A DNA stretch of 43,613 nucleotides from positions 1-43,613 of IMG/VR virus record IMGVR_UViG_2654587728_000013, one strand, 5' to 3'. The stretch comes from a virus (Duplodnaviria; Heunggongvirae; Uroviricota; Caudoviricetes). The notes beneath the pieces were generated by a model that made no database searches, was not told the origin of the DNA, and saw only the letters and a program-made list of their open reading frames with translations. Of the stretch, positions 14,564 to 41,311 are shown in pieces; the stretch's first letter is position 1, and the number at the start of each line of letters is the position of its first letter. The position numbers were made by a program, and so were the translations under genes.

Positions 14564-14577
14564 CGGAGTAGGCAGAG

Positions 14578-16544: not shown

Positions 16545-17086
16545 TCCGTAAACGCATGATCAGGCTGAGAAACGATGGTAACTCGACCATTGCAGACTTT
16601 TATGCAGTGGATGAAGAGCCGCAGACATTTCAGATGGACATATTTAACTGGACTGGATCTCAGGTTGTGGCTGATGCCGCTTTTCAGAACTTCTTTTCAC
16701 TTTCCGGGATCGTTAAAGCTGCTGACGGTAACGCGAATCTCAGCATCAATTCGGGAAATCTTATATTCCCTGCTCAGGAAGCGCCGAGCCAGGTTCTTTT
16801 CAGTACCCGTATTAACGGTACCGTTGGTGGTGCGTCAGGAACGGCAAGGGAATGGATGATTCAGACCAGGCGCCCAAATGGCGACATCGTCGGATCCGAG
16901 TCAAGCGTGAAGGTGAACGGAACCAGCATCAGTAACCGTGACGATGTACTTGCCAGTTTCACCATGAATGAACTTGATCCGTTCACCGTCAGCGGAATTC
17001 AGGTCGGCCTTTCAAATGAATCAGGCCAGACCATCACGTTGACCTCTGTATCTGTCAGGGTTCAACGCGTCATCAGCATTGATTAA
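16541..17086 (+). CDS. hypothetical virion protein
   Basis: 181 aa; coupled to upstream gene. Confidence 0.45.
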   Translation: MIRKRMIRLRNDGNSTIADFYAVDEEPQTFQMDIFNWTGSQVVADAAFQNFFSLSGIVKAADGNANLSINSGNLIFPAQEAPSQVLFSTRINGTVGGASGTAREWMIQTRRPNGDIVGSESSVKVNGTSISNRDDVLASFTMNELDPFTVSGIQVGLSNESGQTITLTSVSVRVQRVISID

Positions 17087-17100
17087 CAAGAAGGTAACGT

Positions 17101-17811: not shown

Positions 17812-17825
17812 GAGAGGAAATAACC

Positions 17826-18812: not shown

Positions 18813-18863
18813 CGCCTGTTATTAACTGATGGGCCTTAACCGGCCCATGAATGGAGAAAGAAA

Positions 18864-19304
18864 ATGATCCTCGACAAACTGTTGATGTTCTCCGAAGCGC
18901 AGGCGGTTACGGCTTCCGCAGCTTCTACTGATGTAATCGATCTCGGTCCTATCGACGGTACCCGCCGTGATATCGGTGTTGGTTACCCGCTGGAGTTCTG
19001 GGCAAACGTGAATACCACTGCAACCGCAGGCGGTGCTGCAACCCTGAACGTTCAGTTGCAGACCAGCCCGGATAACTCCACCTGGACCACGCTGTACGAT
19101 AGCGGCACGTTGGCGCTAGCGGCGTTGACTGCTGGAAAGCGCCTGTTTTCCGCGAAAGTTCCGGCAGGTGTCCAGCGTTATCTGCGTGTTAACTATGTGG
19201 TCGGTACTGGCCCGCTGACTGCCGGTGCTTTCACCTCGGGAATTAACCTGGATGTTGATAACAACAGCCCGTACTACCCGATTCGTTCAAAAGTGACTGG
19301 CTAA
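18864..19304 (+). CDS. hypothetical structural protein (possible capsid decoration)
   Basis: 146 aa; RBS GGAGA; Thr/Ala/Gly-rich beta-like composition. Confidence 0.45.
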   Translation: MILDKLLMFSEAQAVTASAASTDVIDLGPIDGTRRDIGVGYPLEFWANVNTTATAGGAATLNVQLQTSPDNSTWTTLYDSGTLALAALTAGKRLFSAKVPAGVQRYLRVNYVVGTGPLTAGAFTSGINLDVDNNSPYYPIRSKVTG

Positions 19305-19314
19305 GGGGATAGCG

Positions 19315-19695
19315 ATGTCAGGTGAAAAAGCAAGATACCGCGTCCTGCGTTTATCTCACATTCATAACAACCTCTGGCCAGAAGGCTCTGAAGTTGAGTA
19401 TGACGGCGAACCAGGTACGGCGCTGGAGCCACTGAACGATGCGGCGAAATTGGCAAAAGAGATCGCCGAAAAGCGTAAAGGAAGATCGGCTTCTGTAGTT
19501 ATCAATGTTCCATCTCCAGCTGCGGTTCATCAAGTAGTGGAAGAAGTGAAATCTGATGGCACTGGCGCGGTAAGTGAAGACCTTACTCTGCTTCGACAGC
19601 AGTATGAGGATTTACTAGGCAAGAAGCCGGGCAATAAAACGGCTGAAACTCTGGCAAAAGAGATCGCCGAAAAGCGTGCCGAACTGGGCGTCTAA
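19315..19695 (+). CDS. hypothetical protein with internal 27-bp direct repeat
   Basis: 126 aa; LAKEIAEKR occurs twice; followed by terminator. Confidence 0.45.
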   Translation: MSGEKARYRVLRLSHIHNNLWPEGSEVEYDGEPGTALEPLNDAAKLAKEIAEKRKGRSASVVINVPSPAAVHQVVEEVKSDGTGAVSEDLTLLRQQYEDLLGKKPGNKTAETLAKEIAEKRAELGV

Positions 19696-19711
19696 GCCTC
19701 GCTAATCAAAC

Positions 19712-19733
19712 AAGGGGCTTCGGCCCCTTTATT
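19712..19733 (+). terminator. rho-independent terminator/attenuator
   Basis: AAGGGGC-TTCG-GCCCCTT followed by TATT. Confidence 0.6.
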
Positions 19734-19746
19734 GCAGGAGTCCGTT

Positions 19747-20070
19747 ATGGATCTGGTAAACCTCAAAACCGGCACCGACACCTATCAGGATGAGGAGGGT
19801 AAAACCCAGACTCGTGATGATTATCCGTGGGGCCTTTGCATTGAATTGAACAACGAGACGTTAGCCAAGCTAAAGGCAGCACCTCAATCTGCTGGCACTG
19901 AAGTAATGATCACTGCAAAGGCAACTATTCGCTCAACTTCTACCCGCGAAACGGAAGATGGAATGCAGCATAACGCCAGTCTGCAGATCACTGATATGGC
20001 GCTCAGTCCAGTATCCGGTGAGCAACCGAAGTCAGCAGCGCAAACTCTCTACGGTGGGGAGGATGATTAA
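19747..20070 (+). CDS. hypothetical virion protein
   Basis: ORF track start 19732 is TTG; ATG at 19747 with CAGGAG RBS preferred. Confidence 0.45.
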   Translation: MDLVNLKTGTDTYQDEEGKTQTRDDYPWGLCIELNNETLAKLKAAPQSAGTEVMITAKATIRSTSTRETEDGMQHNASLQITDMALSPVSGEQPKSAAQTLYGGEDD

Positions 20071-20675
20071 TGGCTTCTGTTATCGAGATCTGCAACCGCG
20101 CGCTGAGCAATATCGGCAACAGTCGCAGCATTAACAGCCTGAATGAAGCCAGCAAAGAGGCCGGGCAGTGCTCCCTGCATTTTGATGCGTGCCGCGATGC
20201 TGCTCTGGCTGACTTCGACTGGAACTTTGCTACCAAACGCGTGGCGCTGGCTGATACCAATAACCCGCCTCCTGACTGGCAGTACGCTTACCAGTACCCA
20301 TCTGATTGCGTCCGTATAACTGAGATCATGCCGACCGGCATACGCAATCCTACCGCTGCGCAGCGCATTGAATATGTTGTCGGTTCCAATGAGGACCTGA
20401 CAGGTAAGCTCATTTACACCGATCAGCCGAAAGCGTGGTTGAAGTACGTGGCGCGGGTTACTGACGTCAATATGTATGATGCCATTTTTATGGAGGCGCT
20501 TTCCTGGCGTCTGGCCGCTGCCATTAATATGGCGCTTACCGGTAGCGCAGATCTCGGTAACAACGCACTGACGATGTACAACCGTGTGATCCTGAGCGCT
20601 GGCTCACATAGCCAGAATGAATCGCAGGAGCCACAACCTCCGGTAGATGAATTCACAGCAGCGAGGTTGTCATAA
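20070..20675 (+). CDS. tail adaptor-like protein (podovirus gatekeeper-like)
   Basis: 201 aa directly upstream of 825-aa protein; assignment by size and gene order only. Confidence 0.4.
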   Translation: MASVIEICNRALSNIGNSRSINSLNEASKEAGQCSLHFDACRDAALADFDWNFATKRVALADTNNPPPDWQYAYQYPSDCVRITEIMPTGIRNPTAAQRIEYVVGSNEDLTGKLIYTDQPKAWLKYVARVTDVNMYDAIFMEALSWRLAAAINMALTGSADLGNNALTMYNRVILSAGSHSQNESQEPQPPVDEFTAARLS

Positions 20676-23152
20676 TGGCTTTTAGCTGGATTCAACCGAG
20701 CTTTGCCGGTGGTGAAATTGGTCCGTCACTGTATGGCCGTATTGATATGTCAAAGTATCAGGTGGCACTGCGCAAGTGCGATAACTTCATTGTTCGCCAA
20801 TATGGTGGTGTAGAGAACAGACCAGGTACGCGCTTTGTTGGTCCTGCTAAATACCCTGATCGCAAGTGCCGGTTAATCCCATTTCAGTTCTCGACCGTAC
20901 AGACCTATGCTCTGGAGTTCGGGCACAACTATATGCGCGTTATCAAAGATGGCGCTTATGTTCTGACGACCAGCAATGTTATTTATGAGCTGGCGATGCC
21001 GTATGCTGACACTGACCTTTTCCGCATTAAATTCACGCAGAGCGCCGATGTTCTGACGCTGGTGCATCCCGCATACCCTCCGAAAGAACTGCGCCGCTAT
21101 GCGCACGACAACTGGCAGATCGTCGATGTCACCACCAAAAACGGGCCGTTCGAAGATATCAACGTTGACGAGACTGTGAAGGTCTACGCCAGCGCCAGCA
21201 CCGGCACCATTACGTTGACGGCCAGTTCTGCAATCTTCGGTGCTGAACAGGTTGGAAAACTGTTCTATCTCGAGCAGCCCGCGGTTGATTCCGTCCCAGT
21301 ATGGGAAACCAGTAAAACCACAGCAATAAACGACGTTCGTCGTGCAGACAGCAACTACTACCGCGCGAATACTGCAGGTAAGACCGGGACCCTTCGCCCG
21401 TCTCACACTGAAGGTATGTCTTGGGATGGATGGGGCGGTACCGGATCAGATGATACCGGGATACAGTGGGAATACCTGCACAGCGGTTTCGGCATTGCAA
21501 AAATCACAGCAGTGGCTGGCGATGGCCTGACAGCAACTGCCGATGTGATCTCGTTCATTCCATCTCAGGTTGTTGGCTCCGCTAACGCCAGCTATAAGTG
21601 GGCTAAATATGCGTGGAACAGCGTTAACGGCTACCCTAGTACCGTTGTTTACTACCAGCAGCGCCTGTACTTTGCCGCATCTACCGCGTATCCACAAACC
21701 ATCTGGGCAAGCCGCACCGGAGACTATAAAGACTTCGGTAAGAACAACCCTATTCAGGATGACGATCGCATCATCTACACCTACGCCGGGCGACAGGTGA
21801 ATGAGATCCGTCATCTTATTGACGTTGGTAACCTGGTCGCTCTGACATCTGGCGGGGAATATACGATATCCGGGGACCAGAATAAGGTCCTCACGCCATC
21901 GGCGTTCTCGTTCAGTTCGCAGGGCAATAACGGCTCCAGCAATGTTCCGCCGATCGCTGTGGCAAACATCGCACTGTTCATCCAGGAGAAAGGTAGCGTT
22001 GTGCGTGATCTGGCCTACTCCTTCGATGTCGACGGATATCAGGGAACAGACCTGACCATACTGGCAAACCACCTGTTCCAGAAACACAGCATTGTTGACT
22101 GGTCATTCTGCATTGTGCCGTACAGCAGCGCTTTCTGCATTCGTGATGACGGTAAATTACTGGTGCTCACGTATATGCGCGATCAGCAGGTTTTCGCCTG
22201 GGCACCGCAGTCCAGCGCTGGTAAATACGAAAGCACCTGCTCAATCAGTGAAGGCAGCGAGGATGCTGTTTACTTCGTGGTTAACCGTACTATCAATGGG
22301 CAGACCGTACGTTACATCGAACGCCTGTCCAGCCGCCTGTTTACCAGTGATGAAGATGCGTTCTTTGTCGATTGTGGCCTGAGCTACGACGGGCGCAATA
22401 CATCATCACGCACAATGACCATCAGTGGAGGCACAGGTGACTGGAACTATCAGGTTGATTACCCGGTTACAGTAAGCGGTGGTGCGTATTTCGTTAATAC
22501 TGATGTAGGCGCTCAGATTCAGTTCCCATATACCGGCACAGATCCAGACACTAATGAACCGGTCGCTAAAGAGTTGCGCGGCGACATCATTTCAGTGACC
22601 AGTAATACTGCGGTAGTCGTGCGCTTCAATCGTAATGTTCCGGCGGTACTGCGCAATGCGGCCACAACTAACTGGCAGATGGCCCGCCAGACGTTCAGTG
22701 GCCTGTCGCACCTCGAAGGTCAGACAGTAAACATCCTGTCAGATGCCAGCGTTGAGCCTCAGAAGGTTGTCACTGGTGGTTCAGTCACGCTGGAGTCACC
22801 AGGTGCAGTTGTGCATATCGGATTGCCTATCACCGCTGAATTCGAAACACTGGACATCAATATCAATGGGCAGGAAACGCTGCTGGACAAAAAGCAGGTA
22901 ATCCCTACTGTCACGATGGTAGTCAACGCAAGCCGTGGAATCTGGGCAACAACTCCTGGCGGAACCTGGTATGAATATCCGCAGCGTGAATTTGAGTTCT
23001 ACGACGATCCTGTTGATGATGCTACAGGCAAGGTTGAAGTGAAACTCGACAGCAACTGGGATAAAAACGGACGCGTTAAGGTTCGCCAGCTTGACCCACT
23101 CCCGCTTTCTGTTCTTGCTGTATTGCCTCGCCTCACCGTCGGAGGCTTCTGA
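20675..23152 (+). CDS. large tail structural protein (nozzle/tail-tube-B-like)
   Basis: 825 aa; position between adaptor-like gene and internal virion genes. Confidence 0.5.
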   Translation: MAFSWIQPSFAGGEIGPSLYGRIDMSKYQVALRKCDNFIVRQYGGVENRPGTRFVGPAKYPDRKCRLIPFQFSTVQTYALEFGHNYMRVIKDGAYVLTTSNVIYELAMPYADTDLFRIKFTQSADVLTLVHPAYPPKELRRYAHDNWQIVDVTTKNGPFEDINVDETVKVYASASTGTITLTASSAIFGAEQVGKLFYLEQPAVDSVPVWETSKTTAINDVRRADSNYYRANTAGKTGTLRPSHTEGMSWDGWGGTGSDDTGIQWEYLHSGFGIAKITAVAGDGLTATADVISFIPSQVVGSANASYKWAKYAWNSVNGYPSTVVYYQQRLYFAASTAYPQTIWASRTGDYKDFGKNNPIQDDDRIIYTYAGRQVNEIRHLIDVGNLVALTSGGEYTISGDQNKVLTPSAFSFSSQGNNGSSNVPPIAVANIALFIQEKGSVVRDLAYSFDVDGYQGTDLTILANHLFQKHSIVDWSFCIVPYSSAFCIRDDGKLLVLTYMRDQQVFAWAPQSSAGKYESTCSISEGSEDAVYFVVNRTINGQTVRYIERLSSRLFTSDEDAFFVDCGLSYDGRNTSSRTMTISGGTGDWNYQVDYPVTVSGGAYFVNTDVGAQIQFPYTGTDPDTNEPVAKELRGDIISVTSNTAVVVRFNRNVPAVLRNAATTNWQMARQTFSGLSHLEGQTVNILSDASVEPQKVVTGGSVTLESPGAVVHIGLPITAEFETLDININGQETLLDKKQVIPTVTMVVNASRGIWATTPGGTWYEYPQREFEFYDDPVDDATGKVEVKLDSNWDKNGRVKVRQLDPLPLSVLAVLPRLTVGGF

Positions 23153-23616
23153 TGATTAAAGCTCAGATCGTACCAGCTACCACAGAGCACATCGAAGCCA
23201 TCGTTCCACATGTTCGCCAGGCTGATATCGATGAATTTCTGGCAACCAATGGATGGAGTCCGCGTCGCGTACTGGAAACCGGTCTGCGCACGTCAACATT
23301 CTGCTGCGCCGGATTGATTAATGGTGAAGTGGTGACTGTCTTTGGCGTAGCGCCAGCATCGATGATCGGCGGCAGCGGTATTCCGTGGCTGGTTGGCACT
23401 GACGCGCTGGAAAAATACCAGCGTACTTTCCTTCGCCGCTGCGGAAAAGTGGTCAATGCAATGCTGACCGTTTATCCGTATCTTGAAAATTATGTTGATG
23501 CGCGTAACCACACTGCACGCATCTGGCTTCACTGGCTGGGATTCACCATCGATGAGCCTCAGCCATACGGCATTAATAACCTACCGTTTCACCGTTTCCA
23601 CATGGAGAGAAAATAA
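23152..23616 (+). CDS. hypothetical virion protein
   Basis: 154 aa; coupled start. Confidence 0.4.
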   Translation: MIKAQIVPATTEHIEAIVPHVRQADIDEFLATNGWSPRRVLETGLRTSTFCCAGLINGEVVTVFGVAPASMIGGSGIPWLVGTDALEKYQRTFLRRCGKVVNAMLTVYPYLENYVDARNHTARIWLHWLGFTIDEPQPYGINNLPFHRFHMERK

Positions 23617-24158
23617 TGTGCAGCCCGGCTATCGCTCTTGCTGGCGCCAGTGTCGCTTTAAGTGGCGTTTCAGCATACAACCAGTACCAGCAAGGTAAGT
23701 ATTCATCTGCTGTTGCAGAGCAGAATGCAGAAGTGGCCACGGCACAGGCACAGGATTCTATCAACCGTGGCAACGCTCAGGCTGATGAGGTTCGTCGCCG
23801 TAATCGTCAGGCCGCTGGCACCCAGGCGGCAACCATGGGCGCTACAGGTGCAGATCTATCCACTGGTGGAGCGCTGGATATCTTCGGCGATACAGCGCAG
23901 TTTGGCGCGCTGGATGCGCTGACCACGGTCAATAACGCTCAGCGTGAAGCATATGGCTTTCAGGTTCAGGCTGAAAACTACAAAGCTCAGGCCAACTCAG
24001 CACGCAAGCAGGGGAATATGGGAGCATTTACCACACTGCTGACTGCTCCGCTTAATGCCTATGGTGCTTATAGGATTGGTGGTGGTGAATGGAACCCGTT
24101 CACACAAAGTACCCCAGCACCGATCAGCGCTGCCATCGGCACACCAACCGGTCGATAA
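23616..24158 (+). CDS. internal virion protein (putative)
   Basis: 180 aa; N-terminal hydrophobic segment, Ala/Gln/Gly-rich. Confidence 0.45.
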   Translation: MCSPAIALAGASVALSGVSAYNQYQQGKYSSAVAEQNAEVATAQAQDSINRGNAQADEVRRRNRQAAGTQAATMGATGADLSTGGALDIFGDTAQFGALDALTTVNNAQREAYGFQVQAENYKAQANSARKQGNMGAFTTLLTAPLNAYGAYRIGGGEWNPFTQSTPAPISAAIGTPTGR

Positions 24159-24170
24159 GGAGACATAGAA

Positions 24171-26792
24171 ATGCCAACAGTACCAACAGTCACCGGTCGA
24201 CAGGTAGAAAGCAGAGGGTTTCAGTCTCCTGGGTTTCAGGCATTCGATCAGCCAAATATCGGTGATGCTATCGTCGACGCTGGCAGCAAAGCCATCAACG
24301 TATTTGGAGAGGCCAAGCAACGGGCAAATGTGGCACTTACCCAAGAGGCAACTCTTCAACTGAATGCGGTTGGCAACGATCTGCTAAATAACCCTGATTC
24401 AGGATTCATGAATCTGCAAGGGAAGAACGCGATCGGCAAGGGGCAGGAGTACGTGCAGCAGTTTGATTCTCAGGCGCAGAGCATTGCAGCAAGCCTGCCG
24501 GATGAGCAGGCGCGAAATGCGTTTCTTCAGCAGGCACAGCAGCAGAGAATCCAGTTCAAGACGACCGCTGTTCGCCATGAAGTTGGGCAGGTGCGTCAGT
24601 ACGAAGCAGGTATGCAGGAGGGAACGTTACGTTCGCTGGCACAGCAGGCGATTTCTCCTGGTCTGTTTGTTCCTGCATTGATGAATGCTCGTAATTCTAT
24701 TATCGCTTATGGGAAAGCCCACGGACAGAGCGATGAGGAAATAGAGTCTAATTTCGTGCAGTGGCGTGAGCAGGCCGCCAACCGCGCCAGCGAAGCATGG
24801 TATACACCAACCTATCAGCAAATCATGGGGCCGGAAGGTAAGATCGAAGTTACCGACACTCCGAGCGAATCGCAGCTTTTTTCCGCGATGATCTGGCAGG
24901 AATCCGGAGGTAATCAGTATGGCAAAGACGGTTTACCACTGGTATCTCCGAAAGGTGCAGTAGGGGTGGCGCAGGTGATGGAGGATACGGGGCCGGAAGC
25001 AGCACGACTGGCTGGCGTACCGTGGGATCGTGATAAGTGGCTGAACGATACGCGCTACAATGCGAAGCTTGGTCAAGCCTACTTCGGCGCGCAGATGAAG
25101 AAGTATGACAATAATCCTGTACTGGCGGTGGCGGCGTATAACGCTGGGCCAGGTGCGGTTGATGGATGGATAAAGCAGTTTGGCGACCCGCGTACTGGTG
25201 CGGTGAGCAATGAGCAATTCGCTGCGGCAATCCCTTATGATGAAACTCGCAACTATGTCGCGAAAGTAACCGGCAGCGCTCCGGCGATACCAGGAACTGC
25301 TACGATGGAAAACCTCATCAATCAGCCTTTCTGGGATGCGATGAGTCCGCAGAACAAATCAGCGATGATGAGCAAAGTGGCAGGCATGTACGATATGCAA
25401 GCCGCAGCTGGTCGCGTGTCATTGCAAAGCCGCATGCAGGATGACCTTGCTAAATTAGAGTCAGGACAGAAAGTTAACCCGATCTCGGAACGTGAGTGGC
25501 TGGCGGTCATGCCGTTGCAGGCAAGCCCGGCGGAGCGCATTCAGATGCGCGAGTCATTCCAGCAATATCAGCAGGCGATGACGCTGCAACCGGTATATCA
25601 ATCCATTGTTCAGGGTTCTGCGCAGCAGGGTATCGCTGCGGTGCAGTCTATGGTGCCGCAGGAAGATGACCCTGACTTTAAATTTAAGCAGAGCTTGTAC
25701 GCAACTGCGCAGGCCAAACTGAATCAGGTAATTAAAGCGCGCGAGTCCGACCCGGGTACGTGGCTACAAGCCAACTCGCCGGTGGTGAAAAACGCCTTTG
25801 AGCAATATCAGAACAACCAGGCATCAGGTGAATATCTGGTTTCCCGTCTGCAAGCAGAGAAAGACCGCCTTGGTATCAATAGTAAGAAGGTACTTCCTGA
25901 CGCCATGGTTAACAACCTCATTTCTCAGATCGATAACAATAAAGAATCAAGCGTAACCGCCATTCAGTCGGTGGCGCAGTCGTTCGGAAAATACTCCGAT
26001 CAGGTTATGCAGCAGGTGCAGAAAAGCGCATATCCAGCGCTTCAAGTCATCATGGCGACCAATAATCCTCGGGCCGCCAACGCGCTCTGGCAAAACCGCA
26101 GTGTTAAAACTTCTGACCTGCGCGGCAGCTTTGAGAAGACAGACGCCGACAGCGCTGATTCATCTTGGAATGACCAGGCAAAAGATTTTGCCGGGACGAT
26201 GGTTGTACAGCCTGGCGGGTCTGCCGTGTGGAACAACTTCAACGAGCAGGGTAAACGCCTGACCTACACCTATATGCAGCGCGGCATGTCGCCTGGCGAT
26301 GCAGCAAAACAGGCATATCAGGACGTTCTCGGTGAGCAGTATCAGACCAATGGCACCTGGCGTATGCCTAACAACGCCGGGCATGATATTCGTGACGTTA
26401 ATGACGGCGCTAACGTGTACCTGAAGAATCTGTCAGCAGATCAGATCATGCCGCTAATCGGTGACGCCCGTCTGCCGGATGAGGTTAACCGAGAGCAAAG
26501 TATTTCCCGCATTCGTGATAACGCACAGTGGGTAACCAACAGCGACGAAACAGGGCTTACGCTGATGATGAATGGTCTGTTGATCAACAATGCGCAGGGG
26601 CAGCCGATTACAGTTTCGTTTGCTGACCTCGCGAAACTTGGCGCTGGCAACCGTACAACTTGGAACAGCCTGACCAAATTCGTGCAGACGCCGGTTAAGT
26701 ACACTCCGGGCCAGTCGAAGAATTACACGGTAGAAAGTCAGCGTGAAAATCTGATCAACATTATCCAGAACGGCCAGCAGACGGGACGATAA
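24171..26792 (+). CDS. internal virion protein with lytic transglycosylase (SLT) domain
   Basis: 873 aa; WQESGGNQYGKDG...GVAQVMEDTGPE...AAYNAGPGAVDGW matches SLT signature. Confidence 0.75.
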   Translation: MPTVPTVTGRQVESRGFQSPGFQAFDQPNIGDAIVDAGSKAINVFGEAKQRANVALTQEATLQLNAVGNDLLNNPDSGFMNLQGKNAIGKGQEYVQQFDSQAQSIAASLPDEQARNAFLQQAQQQRIQFKTTAVRHEVGQVRQYEAGMQEGTLRSLAQQAISPGLFVPALMNARNSIIAYGKAHGQSDEEIESNFVQWREQAANRASEAWYTPTYQQIMGPEGKIEVTDTPSESQLFSAMIWQESGGNQYGKDGLPLVSPKGAVGVAQVMEDTGPEAARLAGVPWDRDKWLNDTRYNAKLGQAYFGAQMKKYDNNPVLAVAAYNAGPGAVDGWIKQFGDPRTGAVSNEQFAAAIPYDETRNYVAKVTGSAPAIPGTATMENLINQPFWDAMSPQNKSAMMSKVAGMYDMQAAAGRVSLQSRMQDDLAKLESGQKVNPISEREWLAVMPLQASPAERIQMRESFQQYQQAMTLQPVYQSIVQGSAQQGIAAVQSMVPQEDDPDFKFKQSLYATAQAKLNQVIKARESDPGTWLQANSPVVKNAFEQYQNNQASGEYLVSRLQAEKDRLGINSKKVLPDAMVNNLISQIDNNKESSVTAIQSVAQSFGKYSDQVMQQVQKSAYPALQVIMATNNPRAANALWQNRSVKTSDLRGSFEKTDADSADSSWNDQAKDFAGTMVVQPGGSAVWNNFNEQGKRLTYTYMQRGMSPGDAAKQAYQDVLGEQYQTNGTWRMPNNAGHDIRDVNDGANVYLKNLSADQIMPLIGDARLPDEVNREQSISRIRDNAQWVTNSDETGLTLMMNGLLINNAQGQPITVSFADLAKLGAGNRTTWNSLTKFVQTPVKYTPGQSKNYTVESQRENLINIIQNGQQTGR

Positions 26793-31047: not shown

Positions 31048-31419
31048 ATGAACAGAATTATATTAATGACTCTTCTTATTTTTTTTGTTGGAAAAGCTTC
31101 TGCTGATACTACATCACCTTTAATGATTCAGCCTAAAAATGGAGAAACATTGGAGGATTCTAAAAAGCATACAATGGAATACTTTGGATGCATAAAAGGG
31201 CAGGCTGTAAAGTATGCCAAGACAGGAGAAAGTGTTGATTCCATATCAAAAGCTTCGGTTGTGTCATGCGAGTCATATATACCAATGATCGCCGAGTCGA
31301 ATATATATTATTTAAACTCTTCGCAAGATGGTAAGCGGCAATTTACAGAAAGGCTAAAATCTGATGGTGAGAGATTAGCCACAAAATTTGCCATGGATGA
31401 GAAGATTAAAAATAAATAG
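31048..31419 (+). CDS. small secreted protein (AT-rich moron)
   Basis: 123 aa; signal peptide MNRIILMTLLIFFVGKASA; visibly low GC (estimated ~35%, not computed). Confidence 0.55.
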   Translation: MNRIILMTLLIFFVGKASADTTSPLMIQPKNGETLEDSKKHTMEYFGCIKGQAVKYAKTGESVDSISKASVVSCESYIPMIAESNIYYLNSSQDGKRQFTERLKSDGERLATKFAMDEKIKNK

Positions 31420-32499: not shown

Positions 32500-33198
32500 T
32501 CAGAACTTACCAGTCATGCTGTTGATGTACTGCGCATGAGTCTGGATATCGCGCAGGCATTTACTGGCGCCGACAATGTAGCTCATCATGGCCGCGAACT
32601 CTGCTACAGCACCTTCAACATCATGCCCGTCTGCGTCCAGTTGGCGTAGCAGGCTCATCATCAAAGAGTGCTCTGTCAGACCAAGAACACCTTCAGGTGA
32701 ATGGATGTGTTCACGGTAGTTTGGCTTGAGTGGGGCGCTGTATTCCTGTTTCTCTTCCGTCTTCATCGCTTCCAGAATGGCGGGCATGAAGCTGGCTACA
32801 ACCTTTTGCGCTTTGTCTGCCGGTGATAATTCTTCACGAACGTATCGACCAGTGCGGCGGATTTGCGGAAGAACGTCGCCAGTTACCCATTTGCGGAAAC
32901 GATAGGGGATAGTACCAGGAGTTACCGCATCGCGGCAGCGCAGGATCAGAGTGTAGAGGCCGGATTCAGAGATGATGAGGGTATTAGGGTTCCCTCGTTT
33001 TCCGTCGGTTAAAGCGACGGTATTCTTTTCGTCGTCATCCAATTTAAGCAGAGCATCACGGTTGTTTGATATACCAAGAGCATTACATACATCTAACGCA
33101 ATAAACCATGGCTCGCCGTCGATGATGATTGCACGAATATCGGCTTGCGATTCGAAAGAAAAAACTGAAGTATTTTTTTGAGTTGTCATAGTGATCAC
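32500..33198 (-). CDS. Bro-N domain antirepressor
   Basis: 232 aa; N-terminal FSFESQADIRAIIIDGEPWFIALDVCNALGI matches Bro-N; distinct C-terminal domain. Confidence 0.7.
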   Translation of the reverse strand: MITMTTQKNTSVFSFESQADIRAIIIDGEPWFIALDVCNALGISNNRDALLKLDDDEKNTVALTDGKRGNPNTLIISESGLYTLILRCRDAVTPGTIPYRFRKWVTGDVLPQIRRTGRYVREELSPADKAQKVVASFMPAILEAMKTEEKQEYSAPLKPNYREHIHSPEGVLGLTEHSLMMSLLRQLDADGHDVEGAVAEFAAMMSYIVGASKCLRDIQTHAQYINSMTGKF

Positions 33199-33504: not shown

Positions 33505-33765
33505 TTATGTGGTTTGCTTGCGTAACTGTTCCGCACAGTAATCGAGATGCGTTTGCAGATCCTGCATGGTCATTTGAGAGCTTGTTACGTAATTCACAAG
33601 GGCAACCAATTCAGCCAGCGGCCCGTCAACGTTGAAGCCGTCTTTATCGAGTTCCCGCAGCAACTTCATCAGATGCGAGTCCTCCACCAGGGATCTAACG
33701 CCTACCGGCGTGTGTATTCTTTCCTCAAATCCTTCTTCCAGCGGATGGTGATACTGCCGTTGCAT
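33505..33765 (-). CDS. stand-alone paralog of the antirepressor C-terminal domain
   Basis: Aligns by eye to C-terminus of 32500..33198 (HLMKLLRELDKDGFNVDGPLAEL vs SLMMSLLRQLDADGHDVEGAVAEF); start at MQRQYHH with GGAG RBS. Confidence 0.5.
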   Translation of the reverse strand: MQRQYHHPLEEGFEERIHTPVGVRSLVEDSHLMKLLRELDKDGFNVDGPLAELVALVNYVTSSQMTMQDLQTHLDYCAEQLRKQTT

Positions 33766-33840
33766 CTCTTCTTCTCCATGCAATCACTGTATAAACATAC
33801 AGTAGCAGAAGATTTACTGACTATCCAGCACGAAATGTAA

Positions 33841-33857
33841 ATTACCTGTAAGGTAAT
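33841..33857. promoter_or_regulatory. operator copy ATTACC-TGTAA-GGTAAT between antirepressor paralog and tailspike
   Basis: Perfect TTACC-N5-GGTAA in divergent intergenic region. Confidence 0.5.
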
Positions 33858-33962
33858 AAAGTATGTGTTCATTCCTCATTAGGTTCATATAAGGTTTTTA
33901 TGGTAATACAATGATTCAGAGTGCATGCGCGCCGGGCGCAAAAGCAATCTGGAGAAAATGAC

Positions 33963-36650
33963 ATGACGGTTTCAACCGAAGTTGACCACAATGACTACAC
34001 AGGTAACGGGGTCACGACATCATTCCCATATACCTTCCGAATTTTTCATAAGTCTGATCTGGTGGTGCGGGTTGTTGACCTGAGCGAAAACATCACTGAA
34101 TTAACACTGGACACTGACTACACGGTGACAGGTGCTGGCGGATATACTGGCGGGAATGTTGTTTTATCGTCGCCTCTTGCCAATGGTTATCAGATTTCGA
34201 TATCCAGAGAGTTACCGGTTACCCAGGAGACTGATCTCAGAAATCAGGGTAAGTTTTTCGCAGAAGTGCATGAGGATGCTTTTGATAAGTTGACCATGCT
34301 GATACAGCAGGCAATTAGTTGGCTGCGCCTTTCTTTACGTAAGCCGTCTTTTATTGCAAATTATTATGATGCCCTGGGTAACTACATACGAAATCTTCGT
34401 GACCCGTCACGACCACAGGATGCAGCTACAAAAAATTACGTTGACGGAGTTGCTGAAGGTAACACTTCTTATGCAGATTCTCTATTTAAAAGAACCTTAA
34501 GAGTTCCTGAGGATTATGTTGACCAGATACCATCAAATGCTGATAGATCAAATAAAATACTTGCTTTTGATTCTGGCGGTAAACCTATTGCTGTTTTACC
34601 TGAATCTGGTTCTGCTTCAGATGTTTTAATTGAGCTGGCAAATAACGGTGATAAAAAAATTGGTAGCTCATATGGAGGCACAGTTTATAGCGACTACCAA
34701 CGATCAATTTTTGTCAAAAAGGCAGAATTTTCTTCAGGTTTAACCATTTCATCAAAGAATGATGCTTGTCTTTATGCTGATGGGCTATGGTACGTATGGA
34801 CTGGAGCATTACCTCACACCATCTCGTCTGGTGAATTTCCGGATGTCGAAACAACTAAATGGGCATGCGTTGGACTTCTGAATGGTTACCGAATCAATGA
34901 AGTAAAAAATTTCATTGAGAAACCCGGCATCACAAATGATTCACCAGCAATTAAACTTGCTATTTACTCGTTAGTGCGTCTTGGCTACGGAGAGTTGATT
35001 GTTACAGCTAACTCAAAAGTAAACATAATCACAGAGGTTGCAATACCATTTGCCATTGATGGAATCCCTGTATCCATAGGAATAAGAGGTGAAGGTGTAA
35101 TAAACTCTCTGGGGAATGTCCCAGAGATAAGGTTTGGACTTAACTCAAGGGGGATTGTGTTTGGTAATGTTTGCTATTCATTAGACCGCCTGGTGTTATC
35201 ACAATATGTAGGATCAGAAAATACAGATGTGATAAGCAAAACATCCAACACCATTACTCTGGTATCAAATCCATTTCAGGCTAATGGTGGAAATATAATT
35301 ACATGGCCTTTGACTGACAACAACACCGCAGGTGTTCCAGTAAGTAACTTCTGTCAATTCAGCACTAACTCTGGGGCTTTCTTTGCTACAGGACTTGTTA
35401 ATAACTCTGATGGGAGTTGTACATTAACCGGAGTTACTGGGTGCAATGGAACCCCTTCGTCAGAGATATCGAACGTCACAAAAGTTGTCAGATTTACATC
35501 AAGAGCGCATCAGTTACCAGATGACACCTATCCGCGCACAGCAGCATGCATCAGTTTAGATGTCATAGAGAACCCTACTATAAGCAACTTATGGGTTCTG
35601 CAAACATATCGAACTTTCTCATTCAAAGATGGAAATGGAGGCGGAGAAGGTTCAGGTCTGGGTCATTACGGATTGTGGAATGACATCATAGTCGATGGGA
35701 CCAAAGAATTTGTAGGCGGTACAGATTTGAGTGGCGGCAGCATTCAAGGAATTGAAGGCGGACAGTTTGTTAATATCCATCTGTTTGGTACTAAGTATGG
35801 TTTTCGTGGCCGAAGAATGAAGTCATGTATGTTCTCAAACTGCACACACTATGCTTTTACAGGCGGTAAAATATTTGACATTCTGGAGTTTGATGGTTTT
35901 TCATGGGGAGGCGGTTCTATTGGTTGGAACTCAGGTTCTGGGTACATCAGCAATGTTATGGATTGTGTAAATGGTGATAACATTACATTCACCGGTGTTA
36001 AGTTTGGTAGGCACCACACTACAGAATCAGGACCGGCTTTTAAATGCTCATCTCGTTTTACTAATTTTTCATTTACCGGAAACAGCCATGAATCAGTGAG
36101 CGAAGGTGGATTCACTGATATTGGTTTCTTTGATGTAAATGAATTTTCTAGATCAAGTATTGGCGAAAACGCAATTGGGTTTAATGGTAATGGGCAACCA
36201 ACACTAACGATGTCTACTTCTGCACCTGATATTGCAAGATTCGCAGGTACTAGATTTAATCAGCCTGTTCTCACAAATGCCCCTGCTGGCATTTATGATA
36301 ACGAACATACTTCAGGTAAAGGAACATTCTATTCTACATCAGACTATCGTGACTCAGGTAAGATTTTAATAATACCTGATATTAACTCGGCCTCACCATG
36401 GCCTGATGATTCTAGAAATATAATAAAATTTGGCGGTACTTTATCTCCTGGTAAAACTCTAATGCTTCCAGAGCTAACTATATTGAATGGGACGCTTCTT
36501 AGGAGCATGGTTTTACTAGATCTTTCATCAGTAAATTTCAATGGTCAGACTATCGGTATTTATAATGGACCTACACTTATAACTACATTGTCATCACAAG
36601 GAATATATGAGTTTCTTAGTGTAGGATCTACTTATTACAGGATAAAATAA
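33963..36650 (+). CDS. tailspike / receptor-binding protein (mosaic)
   Basis: 895 aa from ATG with GGAGAAAA RBS (ORF track start 33921); N-terminal region of normal GC, C-terminal ~2.2 kb AT-rich and Gly/Asn/Ser/Thr-rich. Confidence 0.7.
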   Translation: MTVSTEVDHNDYTGNGVTTSFPYTFRIFHKSDLVVRVVDLSENITELTLDTDYTVTGAGGYTGGNVVLSSPLANGYQISISRELPVTQETDLRNQGKFFAEVHEDAFDKLTMLIQQAISWLRLSLRKPSFIANYYDALGNYIRNLRDPSRPQDAATKNYVDGVAEGNTSYADSLFKRTLRVPEDYVDQIPSNADRSNKILAFDSGGKPIAVLPESGSASDVLIELANNGDKKIGSSYGGTVYSDYQRSIFVKKAEFSSGLTISSKNDACLYADGLWYVWTGALPHTISSGEFPDVETTKWACVGLLNGYRINEVKNFIEKPGITNDSPAIKLAIYSLVRLGYGELIVTANSKVNIITEVAIPFAIDGIPVSIGIRGEGVINSLGNVPEIRFGLNSRGIVFGNVCYSLDRLVLSQYVGSENTDVISKTSNTITLVSNPFQANGGNIITWPLTDNNTAGVPVSNFCQFSTNSGAFFATGLVNNSDGSCTLTGVTGCNGTPSSEISNVTKVVRFTSRAHQLPDDTYPRTAACISLDVIENPTISNLWVLQTYRTFSFKDGNGGGEGSGLGHYGLWNDIIVDGTKEFVGGTDLSGGSIQGIEGGQFVNIHLFGTKYGFRGRRMKSCMFSNCTHYAFTGGKIFDILEFDGFSWGGGSIGWNSGSGYISNVMDCVNGDNITFTGVKFGRHHTTESGPAFKCSSRFTNFSFTGNSHESVSEGGFTDIGFFDVNEFSRSSIGENAIGFNGNGQPTLTMSTSAPDIARFAGTRFNQPVLTNAPAGIYDNEHTSGKGTFYSTSDYRDSGKILIIPDINSASPWPDDSRNIIKFGGTLSPGKTLMLPELTILNGTLLRSMVLLDLSSVNFNGQTIGIYNGPTLITTLSSQGIYEFLSVGSTYYRIK

Positions 36651-36672
36651 AAAAGCGGGGCATTGACCCCGC
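36642..36672 (-). terminator. rho-independent terminator (minus strand)
   Basis: GCGGGG-CATTGA-CCCCGC hairpin preceded on plus strand by A-run (T-run on minus). Confidence 0.55.
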
Positions 36673-36732
36673 AGCTAAACTATCTTCGAATCTTATTAAT
36701 TATCTTTCTTCCTAGATTAACAAAAGGCTTTT

Positions 36733-37698
36733 CTACTGTCCTGTAGAAATAATTAAAGGAATACCATTTATTAAATTGAAGTAACTTTTATATCCAACAA
36801 AGAAAGCAGAAGGATACTTATCACTCACATTTAATCTTTTCCCTAATCCGTATTTAGTGTCTAACCATACCACAACTTCATCATTATGTTTGTTCTTTGC
36901 AGTCATGCGGTAAACATTTGGATATTTACCCTTAGGGCCACTATCATTTGGTCCGCTGGAGGTGTCTTTCCATTCTTGAGAGTCACCTGATTCATAACAA
37001 ATTGAACTGTTAGCATACAGTTGGGAAAGTGCAGTTTGTAGTCCGTAGTAAGTGTGTATCCTCACCTTTTCAAGGGGAACCATTTTGATATGCACATCTG
37101 CACGTCCTTCATTAAATTTCATTTTTACTTTCTGTTGAATAATCTCTCTACCAGAACCATCTTTCTTTTTGGTGTTAAAGCCCTGTATGTTAGACGTAGT
37201 TTCTATCACTAAATCATTTGTATACCCCTTAAATGTATCATTGACCATCTTCCCATCTACCCATACCTGAAGAGAAACATGCCTGGCTGTAGGAGAGCCA
37301 CTCTGGTTCCCATTAAACCCATGCCAGCCACCTGTGAACTCAGCTATTGGGTCATCACCATCTTCATTACTTTCTGCGCTGACCATAATTGGTCCAATGA
37401 TGTCCGTGTCGAATGTTTGAACTGTCGTTAACCCATCCAGTCTGCCACTGGGAAAATCTGTATACTTCCAAGAAAAATTTTTGTAAATCCTTGAAAATGA
37501 AAATATTTTGTTAAGACCAGTTCTATTAAGCTCAATTACCCGGTCTTCAAGTAGTGAATATTTGTACTGAATTTTTATGTCTGCGTTCGGAACATCAACA
37601 CTAACGTACTGTTTTTCTTTTGCAACATCCTCAGACGCTGTTCCTGCTAACGTGCAAGCTATGATGATAAACAAAGAAATTGATATCGTTTTTTTCAT
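36733..37698 (-). CDS. predicted lipoprotein, function unknown (AT-rich moron)
   Basis: 321 aa; signal peptide with lipobox-like IIAC; low GC; convergent with tailspike. Confidence 0.55.
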   Translation of the reverse strand: MKKTISISLFIIIACTLAGTASEDVAKEKQYVSVDVPNADIKIQYKYSLLEDRVIELNRTGLNKIFSFSRIYKNFSWKYTDFPSGRLDGLTTVQTFDTDIIGPIMVSAESNEDGDDPIAEFTGGWHGFNGNQSGSPTARHVSLQVWVDGKMVNDTFKGYTNDLVIETTSNIQGFNTKKKDGSGREIIQQKVKMKFNEGRADVHIKMVPLEKVRIHTYYGLQTALSQLYANSSICYESGDSQEWKDTSSGPNDSGPKGKYPNVYRMTAKNKHNDEVVVWLDTKYGLGKRLNVSDKYPSAFFVGYKSYFNLINGIPLIISTGQ

Positions 37699-37816
37699 GC
37701 CAATTTACCCGAAAACAATCTTGTAGTAATCATAACTTTTCTGTGCATTTTTTTCATTTTGTTAGATTTATCCACAAATAATGTGTAGAAACTCGCCAAG
37801 AGTGTCATAGTTTATT

Positions 37817-37834
37817 TAAACCATATATGGTTTA
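37817..37834. promoter_or_regulatory. 18-bp perfect palindrome TAAACCATATATGGTTTA
   Basis: In divergent promoter region between lipoprotein gene and lysis cassette. Confidence 0.4.
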
Positions 37835-37894
37835 TTGTGTATGATGTGATCACCAACTAATGGGGGTCTTTATGCACAGTAAACGGTGGTCACC

Positions 37895-38299
37895 ATGTCA
37901 GCCCAGCTAACCAGTGAGTCTTTAAATCAGTGGCTTAGTATGGGTTCTCTGGCTGCAGTGATCGCAGGAGTTCCACCCGAAGTGGCGCTTGGTGCTTTAT
38001 CAGGTGCGGTAATATTTATTACCTCAGCCGTTGAGTATCCAATACGCCGCCGGGTTCTCCTGTCGATGCTCAGCTTCCTCTGCGGGCTTCTATTCTACAA
38101 ACCAACTGCATCAATCCTTATCGGCGTAGCCAGCCTGATCCCAACTATCACACAGGATTCATTCGAGAAAGGGATCGTCTTCTCTGCTGGCGCGTTCGTG
38201 TCGGCAATCGTCGCAGTACGTATTGGTATCTGGCTCTATCACCGTTCCGACAATCCACGCGATTTAATCCCGGGGAGAAAAGACGATGACAACTCATGA
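37895..38299 (+). CDS. holin-like membrane protein (about 4 TM)
   Basis: First gene of lysis cassette; multiple hydrophobic helices; ORF track start is GTG at 37886. Confidence 0.45.
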   Translation: MSAQLTSESLNQWLSMGSLAAVIAGVPPEVALGALSGAVIFITSAVEYPIRRRVLLSMLSFLCGLLFYKPTASILIGVASLIPTITQDSFEKGIVFSAGAFVSAIVAVRIGIWLYHRSDNPRDLIPGRKDDDNS

Positions 38300-38594
38300 G
38301 CTGCTTTTACTGATTGCCAATGCGGTTATCTGTTCTGCGATAGCAATCCGCGTCGGAACCTTCCGGCGTAATGGATCGCAACACCGCCGGTGGGGTGGGT
38401 GGATAGCCTACTTCCTTATCGTGGCATCAGCCAGCATCCCCGTCCGCGCCGCATATGCAATCTGGTATCACACACCAATGGCCGCTGATTTATCAGAGGT
38501 CATCATCAATGCTGTCATGCTTGCCGCTGTTCTGAAGACGCGCGGCAATGTCGTGCAGATATTCAAAATATCGAGGTCTCAACATGGACATTAA
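38286..38594 (+). CDS. holin/antiholin-like membrane protein (3 TM)
   Basis: 102 aa; three TM helices, basic C-terminus; overlaps neighbours. Confidence 0.45.
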
Positions 38595-39210
38595 CCAGTT
38601 CCGGCTAGCAGCCGGTATTACTGAACAACTGGCCACGCGCTGGTACCCACACATCACCGCAGCCATGAATGAGTTTGGCATTATTAAACCTGATGACCAG
38701 GCGATGTTTATTGCGCAGGTCGGGCATGAGTCCGAAGGGTTTACCCGGTTACAGGAAAACTTCAACTACAGCGTTAACGGTCTGTCCGGGTTTATCCGTG
38801 CCGGGCGTATCACTCCAGACCAGGCCAACGCACTCGGCAGGAAAACATATGAGAAGTCTCTTCCTCTGGAGCGCCAGCGCGCGATCGCCAATCTGGTGTA
38901 CAGCAAGCGCATGGGTAACAACGGCCCAGGTGATGGATGGAATTATCGCGGTCGTGGACTTATCCAGATCACTGGTCTGAACAACTACCGGGATTGCGGT
39001 AATGGTCTGAAGGTTGATCTGGTCGCTCATCCTGAACTGCTGGCGCAGGATGAATACGCGGCCCGCAGCGCGGCGTGGTTCTTCGCCAGCAAAGGTTGCA
39101 TGAAGTACACGGGAGACCTAGTGCGCGTCACGCAGATTATCAACGGTGGCCAGAACGGTATCGACGACCGGCGAGCACGTTACGCCGCTGCTCGTAAGGC
39201 ACTGTTATGA
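38584..39210 (+). CDS. endolysin, glycoside hydrolase family 19 (chitinase-like)
   Basis: [17 protein letters not shown] and QVGHESEGF motifs; start MDINQF (ORF track 38548). Confidence 0.8.
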
Positions 39211-39689
39211 TCTGGGCATTCATCAAAGCGTACTGGAAACAGTTGCTTATCGTAGTGATGCTTGCGGCGCTGGTTATCGGTGGAGTGGTTGCGTGGAAGG
39301 ATAACGGCGACCGGAAGTATGCCGCCGGGTATGCTCAGGCGCAGGCAGACCAGAAACAGGCTGATGATAAAGCCCGTAAACACGACGAACAGGAGAAAGT
39401 GATCAATGAACGTGAAGCGCAGCAGAGGATCGACCAGGCGCGTAATGATGCTCTTGATGCTTCCGCTCGCGCTGGCCGGTTGCAGCAACAGCTCGTTGCC
39501 ATCCGTGAGCAGCTCAGGCAGTATAACTCCACTGTCGGCGCTGGGACGTCAGCCGCAGATACCGGCGTTTTGCTTACCGACGTGCTCAGCAAATCTCTCG
39601 AGCGAAACCGACAACTGGCAGAGTACGCTGACCGGGCCGCCGAAGCCGGAAGAGTCTGTGAAAAGCAGTACGATTCGCTGACTAGGTGA
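39207..39689 (+). CDS. i-spanin (Rz-like)
   Basis: 160 aa; N-terminal TM helix then Gln/Ala/Arg-rich coiled coil; follows endolysin. Confidence 0.7.
39406..39681 (+). CDS. o-spanin (Rz1-like lipoprotein) embedded in +1 frame
   Basis: 91 aa; RBS AGGAGA; signal peptide with lipobox LALAGC; Pro/Ser-rich; fully nested in i-spanin gene. Confidence 0.6.
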   Translation: MNVKRSRGSTRRVMMLLMLPLALAGCSNSSLPSVSSSGSITPLSALGRQPQIPAFCLPTCSANLSSETDNWQSTLTGPPKPEESVKSSTIR

Positions 39690-40120
39690 CATGGCATTTT
39701 TCATGGTACTGATTTCCGGTGACGGTATATAAAACGGTACGGTAAAAATCGGTTTCAGGAAAATTGTTGTCAGTCAATTAGTTATGCTTACCGTAAATAA
39801 TTGAGTGGGAATGATTTAACGTCTGGCAACAGCCTGCACGTAAAAGCAGTAAAGTACCTCTAAGCCCGCGTAACTGCGGGCTTTTTTGTTTTTGTATCTG
39901 GCACTTTCTGGCAGCTGTTAGCAACGGGAAGCACGGTTTTTTCAATGGAATTTTTGATGGTACTCTCTGGTTTCGAATTCAGGTTTGAAAAAGTACCATG
40001 TGATAAATTTCGGTTGAGTTATGGTATTTATTTTTTATAACTCAATTAAAAACAGAGAGTTAAACAAGTTTTCTGAATTTTTTACAACATGGTATTTTTG
40101 ATAAAGGAAAACAATAAAAC
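39690..40120. other. candidate attP / integrase arm-site region
   Basis: Non-coding 430 bp upstream of int with repeated ATGGTA(C/T)T elements at 39702, 39955, 40019, 40088 and inverted copy AGTACCATG at 39992. Confidence 0.4.
39862..39893 (+). terminator. rho-independent terminator after lysis cassette
   Basis: AAGCCCGCG-TAACT-GCGGGCTT followed by TTTTTGTTTTT. Confidence 0.7.
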
Positions 40121-41311
40121 ATGTTGACTGACACCAGGCTGCGTCACCTTAAGCCGAAGGAGAAACTCTATAAAGTTAATGACCGTGATGGTCTGTATGT
40201 TGCGGTCACTCCGGCTGGAACTATTTCATTTCGTTATAACTATTCAATAAACGGAAGACAGGAGACCGTTACTTTTGGCCGCTATGGTGTTGGAGGGATC
40301 ACGCTTGCAGAAGCGCGTGAACGGCTCAATGAAGCTAAAAAAATGGTTGCCAGTGGAAGATCGCCAGCGAGGGAAAAAGCTAGAGATAAAGCTCGTATCA
40401 AAGATGCGGAGACTTTTGGTGCATGGGCTGAGAAATGGTTACGCGGTTATCAAATGGCTGAATCGACGCGTGATATGCGGCGTTCGGTATATCAAAGGGA
40501 GTTGAAGTCAAAATTTGCGCAGCAGAAATTGACCGAGATTACACATGAAGACTTACGCGCATTAACCGATAACATTGTCGAGAGAGGGGCACCGGCGACA
40601 GCTGTGCACGCCAGAGAGATTGTATTGCAAGTCTATCGCTGGGCTATTGAGCGCGGTCAGAAGGTTGAGAATCCCGCTGATCTGGTACGGCCTGCAAGCA
40701 TAGCGAAATTTGAGCCTCGTGACAGGGCATTGACGCCAGTTGAAATTGGTCTGATGTATCGGTACATGGAACGGGTAGGAACGACGCCATCAATCAGAGC
40801 AGCGGTTAAACTTTTGCTGTTAACGATGGTACGTAAAAGTGAGCTTACTAACGCAACCTGGAACGAGATCAATTTTAGTGAGGCATTATGGACGATACCA
40901 AAGGAGAGGATGAAACGACGTAATCCACATTTGGTTTTTCTTTCCAGACAGGCAATGGATATTATGATTGCTCTCAAAACCTTTGCCGGTAGCTCTGATT
41001 TTATCCTTCCTTCGCGGTACGATTCCGATGCGCCAATGAGTAGCGCTACTTTAAACCGGGTTTTGACACTGACGTATCGTCTGGCTCAGAAAGAAGGGGA
41101 CTTGTTACCTAAGTTTGGTCCCCATGACTTACGGCGTACTGCCAGCACCTTGCTACATGAGGCCGGGTACAATACTGACTGGATTGAGAAGTGCCTTGCC
41201 CATGAACAAAAGGGGGTACGAGCTGTTTATAACAAGGCTGAATATCGTGAGCAGAGGGCCGAGATGCTACAAGATTGGGCGAATATGATTGATGAATGGA
41301 CTAGTAAGTAG
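40121..41311 (+). CDS. int: site-specific tyrosine integrase
   Basis: 396 aa; N-terminal arm-binding-like domain (LTDTRLRHLKPKEKLYKV), C-terminal catalytic region with HDLRRT and conserved Tyr context. Confidence 0.9.
   Translation: MLTDTRLRHLKPKEKLYKVNDRDGLYVAVTPAGTISFRYNYSINGRQETVTFGRYGVGGITLAEARERLNEAKKMVASGRSPAREKARDKARIKDAETFGAWAEKWLRGYQMAESTRDMRRSVYQRELKSKFAQQKLTEITHEDLRALTDNIVERGAPATAVHAREIVLQVYRWAIERGQKVENPADLVRPASIAKFEPRDRALTPVEIGLMYRYMERVGTTPSIRAAVKLLLLTMVRKSELTNATWNEINFSEALWTIPKERMKRRNPHLVFLSRQAMDIMIALKTFAGSSDFILPSRYDSDAPMSSATLNRVLTLTYRLAQKEGDLLPKFGPHDLRRTASTLLHEAGYNTDWIEKCLAHEQKGVRAVYNKAEYREQRAEMLQDWANMIDEWTSK

Follow-up and report, generated by a model that had tools for sequence, protein, structure and literature searches.

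A mosaic tailspike of an epsilon15-type Escherichia coli podovirus with a probable O127/O90/O:13 specificity module in an AT-rich cassette

The 43,613-nucleotide stretch of phage DNA analyzed here (IMG/VR record IMGVR_UViG_2654587728_000013, positions 1 to 43,613; hereafter the window) is the genome of a temperate epsilon15-type podovirus, whose head and tail genes are 92–95% identical in nucleotide sequence to those of the Salmonella phages PAT1, SPN1S, and epsilon15. Its tailspike gene, the subject of this study, is located on the plus strand (positions 33963–36650, stop at 36650) and encodes a protein of 895 amino acids. A GGAG lies 9 nucleotides upstream of the ATG at 33963; the same reading frame is already open from a GTG at 33921, and the ATG was taken as the start because homologues begin with MTVSTEV. 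Exact-sequence look-ups identified the protein as E. coli WP_064758820.1, and it is matched by the PHROG family phrog_1640, ‘tail protein’ (E 1.7e-217). Comparison of the open reading frames (ORFs) of the window with the annotation of epsilon15 and PAT1 showed a syntenic order of tail genes, a small opposite-strand gene, tailspike, opposite-strand conversion genes, and holin and lysis genes. Holins, a GH19 endolysin, a DUF2514 protein, and an integrase lie 3' of the tailspike in the window. The gene is a mosaic tailspike composed of modules of separate history. It very probably joins the lineage-bound anchor of an epsilon15-type (Uetakevirus-like) temperate E. coli podovirus to an exchangeable module for the O127/O90/O:13 antigen, the latter within an AT-rich cassette.

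The virion-anchor domain, an N-terminus of the epsilon15 gp20 and T7 gp17-like type, consists of amino acids 1–122 (positions 33963–34328, plus strand). It is 90–93% identical in amino acid sequence to the equivalent parts of epsilon15 and PAT1, and a Protein Data Bank (PDB) sequence search matched the N-terminus of Dpo31 to residues 1–171 (E 8e-26). The N-terminal 170–250 residues are common to about 20 PHROG families, while phrog_22294 instead covers residues 227–893. Among catalogued phages, relatives were found only for the first ~500–600 nucleotides of the gene, and all of these are epsilon15-type tailspikes (77–85% nucleotide identity; 83–85% over the first ~550–600 nucleotides in the comparison that defines the epsilon15-type anchor). 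PAT1 itself shares only the 5' part of the gene, despite 95% identity of the head and tail genes at ~14068–24270. On this flank DNA alignment starts from 33505; that to PAT1 ends at 34444 and that to epsilon15 at 34642, and both resume at 37816–37821, just before the holin gene. Past this shared part, identity to epsilon15-type tailspikes falls to 14–31% of amino acids in forced global alignment (17–31% beyond residue 229), with no DNA match. Thus, the protein has an anchor homologous to that of epsilon15 gp20 but lacks a receptor-binding domain orthologous to that of gp20.

The anchor is followed by a neck or linker (amino acids 123–228; positions 34329–34646, plus strand), delimited by decaying identity and by a change in guanine-plus-cytosine (GC) content at third codon positions (GC3). 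The neck has the lowest GC3 in the gene, in a trough of 0.14–0.24 that spans codons 125–250. Its identity to epsilon15 declines from 86% to 60%, while its identity to a family of 903-amino acid epsilon15-type proteins stays at 98–100%. Residues 135–229 match the Acinetobacter KN1 depolymerase (9m4c, E 4e-10) in the PDB sequence search.

Residues 229–895 constitute the receptor-binding module, which is found on several different anchors. The module is 95–96% identical to E. coli tailspikes bearing the P22 head-binding domain (PF09008), 77% identical to P22-anchored Salmonella tailspikes, and 94% identical to a tailspike with a third anchor, whose N-terminus reads MATQPTNLPVPS... Relatives at 42–56% identity carry at least four further N-termini. 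A Pfam search located PF09008 in three of the relatives and did not find it in the window protein. Among the C-terminal-module relatives returned by a database search with residues 231–895, the epsilon15-type N-terminus occurs only at 44–45% identity. The β-helix part of the module is rare: it is matched by only 15 clusters (50% identity) in a set of 1.84 billion representatives, and a domain-alignment scan of one genome per species returned no relative.

The module begins with a small β domain (Tail_spike_N, PF18668; amino acids 229–304, positions 34647–34874, plus strand; Pfam match to amino acids 248–294, E 1.4e-6), and a first exchange junction falls at its start, at 34650–34659. At 34659, at the motif GDK-IGSSYGG, the DNA suddenly becomes similar to that of the P22-type tailspike gene in E. 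coli S1, and similarity to P22-type prophages spans 34659 to 37629/37709. A second junction lies near amino acid 300, where identity to the 903-amino acid family drops from 85% to 38%; these proteins are 98–100% identical to the window tailspike over residues 1–228, 83–88% over residues 229–300, and 37–49% beyond. A reading of the locus made beforehand without database searches (the sequence-only reading) had proposed that the C-terminus is a horizontally exchanged receptor-binding domain, and had suggested comparing C-terminal domains across related phages. The comparison bears out the proposal: the module is not conserved in epsilon15-type relatives (14–31% identity) and is 94–96% identical on the P22 and third anchors.

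The AT-rich DNA does not stop at the end of the tailspike gene but forms an island at 34329–37815 (GC 0.386), and the 3.5-kb stretch of lowest GC in the window begins at 34351; the sequence-only reading had overlooked this continuation. The island corresponds to an exchangeable cassette, bounded by the points at which similarity to epsilon15 and PAT1 stops (34444–34642) and resumes (37816–37821). One or more putative conversion genes on the opposite strand, and then a gene for a 335-amino acid protein, come after the receptor-binding domain in every context examined: those of E2348/69, of Salmonella, of four P22-type E. coli prophages, of the E. coli contig L007, and of a Citrobacter freundii prophage bearing the third anchor. 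As conversion genes, a given context has either Acyl_transf_3 (PF01757) or gtrA-gtrB-gtrC. The GC content of the domain is ~0.40 on all backbones, and that of the accompanying genes 0.31–0.38.

In the window, the minus-strand conversion genes have a terminator-like GC-rich hairpin with a T-run, located 5 nucleotides past the tailspike stop codon (36655–36672, minus strand). The acyltransferase gene is reduced to a remnant of its last 20 codons (...TVEKPFVNLGRKIINKIRR*) and a deletion junction at 36737–36739 (together 36651–36739, minus strand). Relative to E2348/69 (L001 8839–9991) and a Salmonella prophage (L014), 1153 bp are absent from the window; the deletion runs from the 3' end of the acyltransferase gene to the 3' end of the 335-amino acid gene, with TGT microhomology at both ends. 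The gene so removed encodes a 357-amino acid PF01757 protein (E 1e-34), for which an NCBIfam search gave no match, and which is intact in E2348/69, S1, and Salmonella but not in the window. What is left of the neighboring gene (36733–37698, minus strand) encodes 321 amino acids, a shortened copy that has lost 14 C-terminal residues and with them a segment conserved in the 335-amino acid protein.

The tailspike gene as a whole has a GC content of 0.405 and a GC3 of 0.31, as compared with 0.52–0.56 and 0.55–0.67 for the structural genes and a GC content of 0.50 for the window. The N-terminal region had been described as genome-typical in GC, which is incorrect. The first 366 nucleotides are intermediate (GC 0.464, GC3 0.49), and the value for the first 450 nucleotides (0.453) is equaled or undercut by only 1.9% of 450-nucleotide windows in the structural region; the N-terminal regions of the epsilon15 and PAT1 tailspikes are likewise intermediate (0.445–0.454). 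The description of the C-terminal ~2.2 kb as AT-rich is accurate at third codon positions. GC3 changes at codon 122 (~34329) from 0.49 to 0.28, a break reached in 1 of 2000 permutations, and the AT-rich part of the gene therefore amounts to ~2.3 kb. A pre-set cut at nucleotide 450 also separated the two parts in total GC (0.453 vs. 0.395, p=0.02), but the description is too sharp for total GC, in which the whole gene is AT-rich and a change-point scan was not significant (see below). The predicted richness in Gly, Asn, Ser, and Thr was confirmed: these four residues account for 39.4% of residues 229–895, compared with 29.8% of residues 1–228 and 26.3% of the structural proteins, with glycine (12.7%) supplying most of the excess. 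Neither a uniform GC content (as judged from GC3) nor a C-terminal domain conserved among relatives, the combination named as speaking against a mosaic gene, was found.

The window tailspike is 99% identical in amino acid sequence to that of an epsilon15-type prophage in enteropathogenic E. coli (EPEC) E2348/69, which has serotype O127:H6. Using the O-antigen cluster of E2348/69 as a marker (fucosyltransferase, glycosyltransferase, wzy, acetyltransferase, and wzx), we detected the O90/O127 wzx/wzy cluster in 11 of 5426 complete E. coli genomes. The receptor-binding domain, searched alone by sensitive blastn, occurs in eight genomes of this set, and all eight are among the 11 (hypergeometric probability of the overlap 9e-24; 1.4e-15 with the four E2348/69 assemblies collapsed). 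The E. coli carriers differ in prophage type and insertion site. The 77% relative is found in the Salmonella serovars Worthington, Kedougou, Cubana, Vridi, and Idikan. Worthington and Vridi we take to be O:13 under the Kauffmann-White scheme. PMC3464306 places Kedougou, Cubana, and Idikan in O:13 (1,13,23). The O127 repeat unit is ->2)-alpha-L-Fuc-(1->2)-beta-D-Gal-(1->3)-alpha-D-GalNAc-(1->3)-alpha-D-GalNAc-(1-> (PMC7685785), and that paper cites work relating the Salmonella O13 antigen to E. coli O127. The group 4 capsule of EPEC O127 has the same repeat unit as the O-antigen (PMC8592465). These comparisons suggest that the module most likely binds a fucose-containing O-antigen common to E. 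coli O127/O90 and Salmonella O:13.

Modeled as a monomer with AlphaFold2, residues 223–895 form a small β domain, a long β-helix, and a C-terminal β-sandwich. The Tail_spike_N region has a predicted local distance difference test (pLDDT) score of ~90. The central domain is a right-handed parallel β-helix (amino acids ~305–790; positions 34875–36332, plus strand) and a putative O-antigen endoglycosidase. The β-sandwich (amino acids ~791–895; positions 36333–36650, plus strand) is encoded by the gene's most AT-rich segment (GC 0.343), and its strands, at model positions 598–671, have pLDDT values of ~90. Two acidic residues, E536 and D578, are invariant in the receptor-binding module. The module most likely cleaves O-antigen, and would do so by hydrolysis; indirect indications of cleavage are these two residues and the strict co-occurrence with O90/O127 hosts. 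An NCBIfam search with the tailspike gave no match. GH110 α-galactosidases, the top match in a Foldseek search, were set aside as a generic β-helix resemblance (template modeling (TM) score ~0.2).

Several results weigh against this picture of an exchanged O-antigen-specific module. The domain is missing from three of the 11 O90/O127-cluster genomes, which is to be expected of a prophage trait but restricts what can be concluded, and the serogroup association is a co-occurrence and does not demonstrate cleavage, being drawn from five independent E. coli lineages and from serovar names. A tblastn search of catalogued phages yielded a nearest relative at only 29% identity, in Vibrio phages. The AlphaFold2 model has a mean pLDDT of 72, with several segments below 50; Foldseek comparison with the PDB gave low TM-scores of ~0.2; and PDB sequence searches, run both with the protein itself and with profiles of its family, matched the anchor and returned nothing for the β-helix. 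A scan for a single change point in total GC within the gene did not reach significance (60 of 500 permutations), and the best break lay near the 3' end. This last result, along with the enrichment of the C-terminal part in Gly, Ser, Thr, and Asn, is what would be expected if the composition difference reflected the amino acid content or codon selection of a β-helix protein and not a foreign origin. Such an explanation is nonetheless very improbable, as the break occurs at synonymous third positions, Gly codons are GC-rich, the low GC runs on through intergenic DNA and an opposite-strand gene, and the same DNA is present at 92% identity in unrelated phage backbones. A different challenge concerns the timing of the exchange. 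Positions 33505–39820, comprising a small upstream gene, the tailspike with its anchor, the cassette, and the lysis genes, are 96–98% identical in nucleotide sequence to the epsilon15-type prophages of E2348/69 and Salmonella, and no blastn similarity to these prophages was found upstream of 33505. For this reason, the last step was probably the exchange of 33505–39820 as one block between epsilon15-type phages. The tailspike proteins of the window and these prophages are also 98.8–99% identical end to end. We consider it somewhat probable that the window phage underwent no domain-level swap of its own, the whole tailspike having arrived in this block and the fusion being older and inherited. 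This possibility refines, and does not contradict, a modular origin, as the gene in either case combines an epsilon15-type anchor with a domain common to P22-type and other anchors. As judged from these similarities, the window phage is a mosaic on a large scale. The earlier suggestion that the specificity module was acquired apart from the virion anchor is accordingly supported in substance, but the exchanged unit is larger than was supposed, comprising the domain and downstream conversion genes, and the most recent transfer probably included the anchor.

The activity of the module is likewise subject to alternatives. It might bind O-antigen without being a glycosidase, either as a non-catalytic adhesin or as an enzyme acting on the O-acetyl groups of fucose. 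In keeping with this, the catalytic residues (E536, D578, and E714) are no more than candidates, and the O127 and O90 antigens differ in the acetylation of fucose (PMC7685785). Non-enzymatic adhesins such as PfbA also appear among the β-helix matches. Even so, we regard a non-glycosidase as unlikely. The sequence-only reading had pointed to a pectate-lyase fold, which would imply a polysaccharide lyase, and for this we see hardly any probability. β-Elimination requires a uronic acid. The repeat unit of O127, the proposed substrate, is made of L-Fuc, Gal, and two GalNAc and contains no uronic acid (PMC7685785), so that the chemistry rules out a lyase mechanism. The window protein also matched no lyase family in Pfam, and its likeness to lyases is one of generic fold. 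Hydrolysis of O-antigen thus continues to be the favored activity.

In the arrangement we propose, residues 1 to ~228, that is, the anchor and neck, would fix a presumably trimeric spike to the tail and would follow the phage lineage. Residues 229–895 (Tail_spike_N, right-handed β-helix, and C-terminal β-sandwich) would serve as the host-specificity module, and cleavage of the O-antigen would let the virion descend to the outer membrane. The AT-rich cassette, composed of the domain, a putative O-antigen conversion enzyme, and the 335-amino acid secreted protein, has been transplanted between phage backbones of at least three kinds, within E. coli, Salmonella, and Citrobacter. The likely recombination points are the GDK-IGSSYGG motif (amino acid ~229) and a site just upstream of the lysis genes. 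In the window, the cassette is now in decay, the 1153-bp deletion having taken the acyltransferase and clipped the 335-amino acid gene.

The constant linkage of the 335-amino acid protein to the receptor-binding domain is the one unexplained feature of the cassette. Direct reading of the protein's sequence shows a signal peptide with a lipobox-like IIAC. Neither the full-length nor the 321-amino acid form gave a match in Pfam, PHROG, NCBIfam, or PDB sequence searches, and by this measure the protein belongs to no described family. It has distant homologues in Firmicutes, and its invariant residues include D99, H126 (motif FTGGWHG), Y218, K304, and Y306. Structure prediction indicates that it may have a galactose-mutarotase-like fold, the nearest structural matches including GH174 endo-fucanases. 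Action on the O-antigen would explain why the protein is steadily linked to the domain across three phage types while the neighboring conversion enzyme is interchangeable. We offer only tentatively, and as a rather doubtful proposal, that it is a new phage-encoded periplasmic or outer-membrane carbohydrate-active protein that acts on the fucose-containing O127/O13-type O-antigen, serving either in conversion or in superinfection exclusion. A further copy of the gene (87% nucleotide identity) is present in E. coli 2017.01.04CC (NZ_AP021891.1, 1388484–1389491), beside intS and gtr genes disrupted by an insertion sequence. This prophage remnant has lost its tailspike, and its host is outside the O90/O127-cluster genomes.

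Some other genes of the window were noted in passing. Directly 3' of the last large tail gene is a 123-amino acid gene (31048–31419, plus strand; GC 0.35) whose product has a signal-peptide-like N-terminus, MNRIILMTLLIFFVGKASA; Pfam and PHROG searches gave no match, and the gene is a candidate moron. Between the tail genes and the tailspike lie a Bro-N domain protein of 232 amino acids (32500–33198, minus strand) and a 92-amino acid protein (33505–33783, minus strand) that resembles an anti-repressor C-terminus (phrog_450, phrog_1760). The two have a similar C-terminal motif, ...LMxLLRxLDxDGxxVxG.... The integrase (40121–41311) is followed by two ORFs of 209 and 323 amino acids, with no family match and a GC content of 0.38–0.44, which extend to 43613; the start of the 323-amino acid ORF coincides exactly with the end of the window. 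A lead to Kapi1, which arose from S1 (a mouse isolate with its prophage at argW), was dropped, as Kapi1 is absent from the phage search matches and does not infect E2348/69.

The locus provides a clear worked example in which the exchanged unit consists of a specificity domain together with receptor-modifying genes, with defined junctions. It also points to the O127/O90 and O:13 O-antigen as the probable receptor of a rare and uncharacterized tailspike domain. As a prophage of the prototype EPEC strain E2348/69 carries the domain, it might be used as a reagent for typing or decapsulation or as a building block of engineered phages. These results leave the present view of tailspike evolution unchanged.

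Compared with known tailspikes, the window protein is closest in setting to epsilon15 gp20 and the other Uetakevirus tailspikes (PAT1, SPN1S, and phiV10), which occupy the same genome position and have the same downstream order of conversion and then lysis genes. These differ from the window tailspike in lacking meaningful similarity past residue ~180–230. Since similarity ends there and lengths differ as well (1070 amino acids in epsilon15 gp20 and 769 in PAT1), receptor specificity is expected to differ. P22-type (Lederbergvirus-like) prophage tailspikes, such as WP_073527284 in S1 and those of Salmonella O:13, have the same module and downstream cassette as the window but carry PF09008 at the N-terminus, which the window tailspike lacks. 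The opposite-strand conversion genes directly after the tailspike in epsilon15 (gp21/gp22) and PAT1 (an acyltransferase) have counterparts in the cassette relatives of the window. In these relatives the gene in question is Acyl_transf_3 or gtrABC, the latter comparable to the gtrABC of P22-type phages, whereas in the window the acyltransferase is deleted. The tailspike endoglycosidases of P22, Sf6, HK620, Det7, and CBA120 (TSP1-4) are more remote, being only 8–11% identical in sequence to the window module, with no match at the sequence level in the PDB and with a substrate different from the one predicted here. Tailspike anchors have been described as tracking phage genus, and receptor-binding domains as tracking O-serogroup and moving horizontally, in Lederberg- and Uetakeviruses among others (PMC10408124, Virol J 2023). 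In these two groups, according to the same study, gene order downstream of the gene for the receptor-binding protein is not conserved; a word search of the paper for O127 and O90 returned neither. The window tailspike fits the described pattern exactly, and for this cassette adds to it the co-transfer of downstream conversion genes with the domain.

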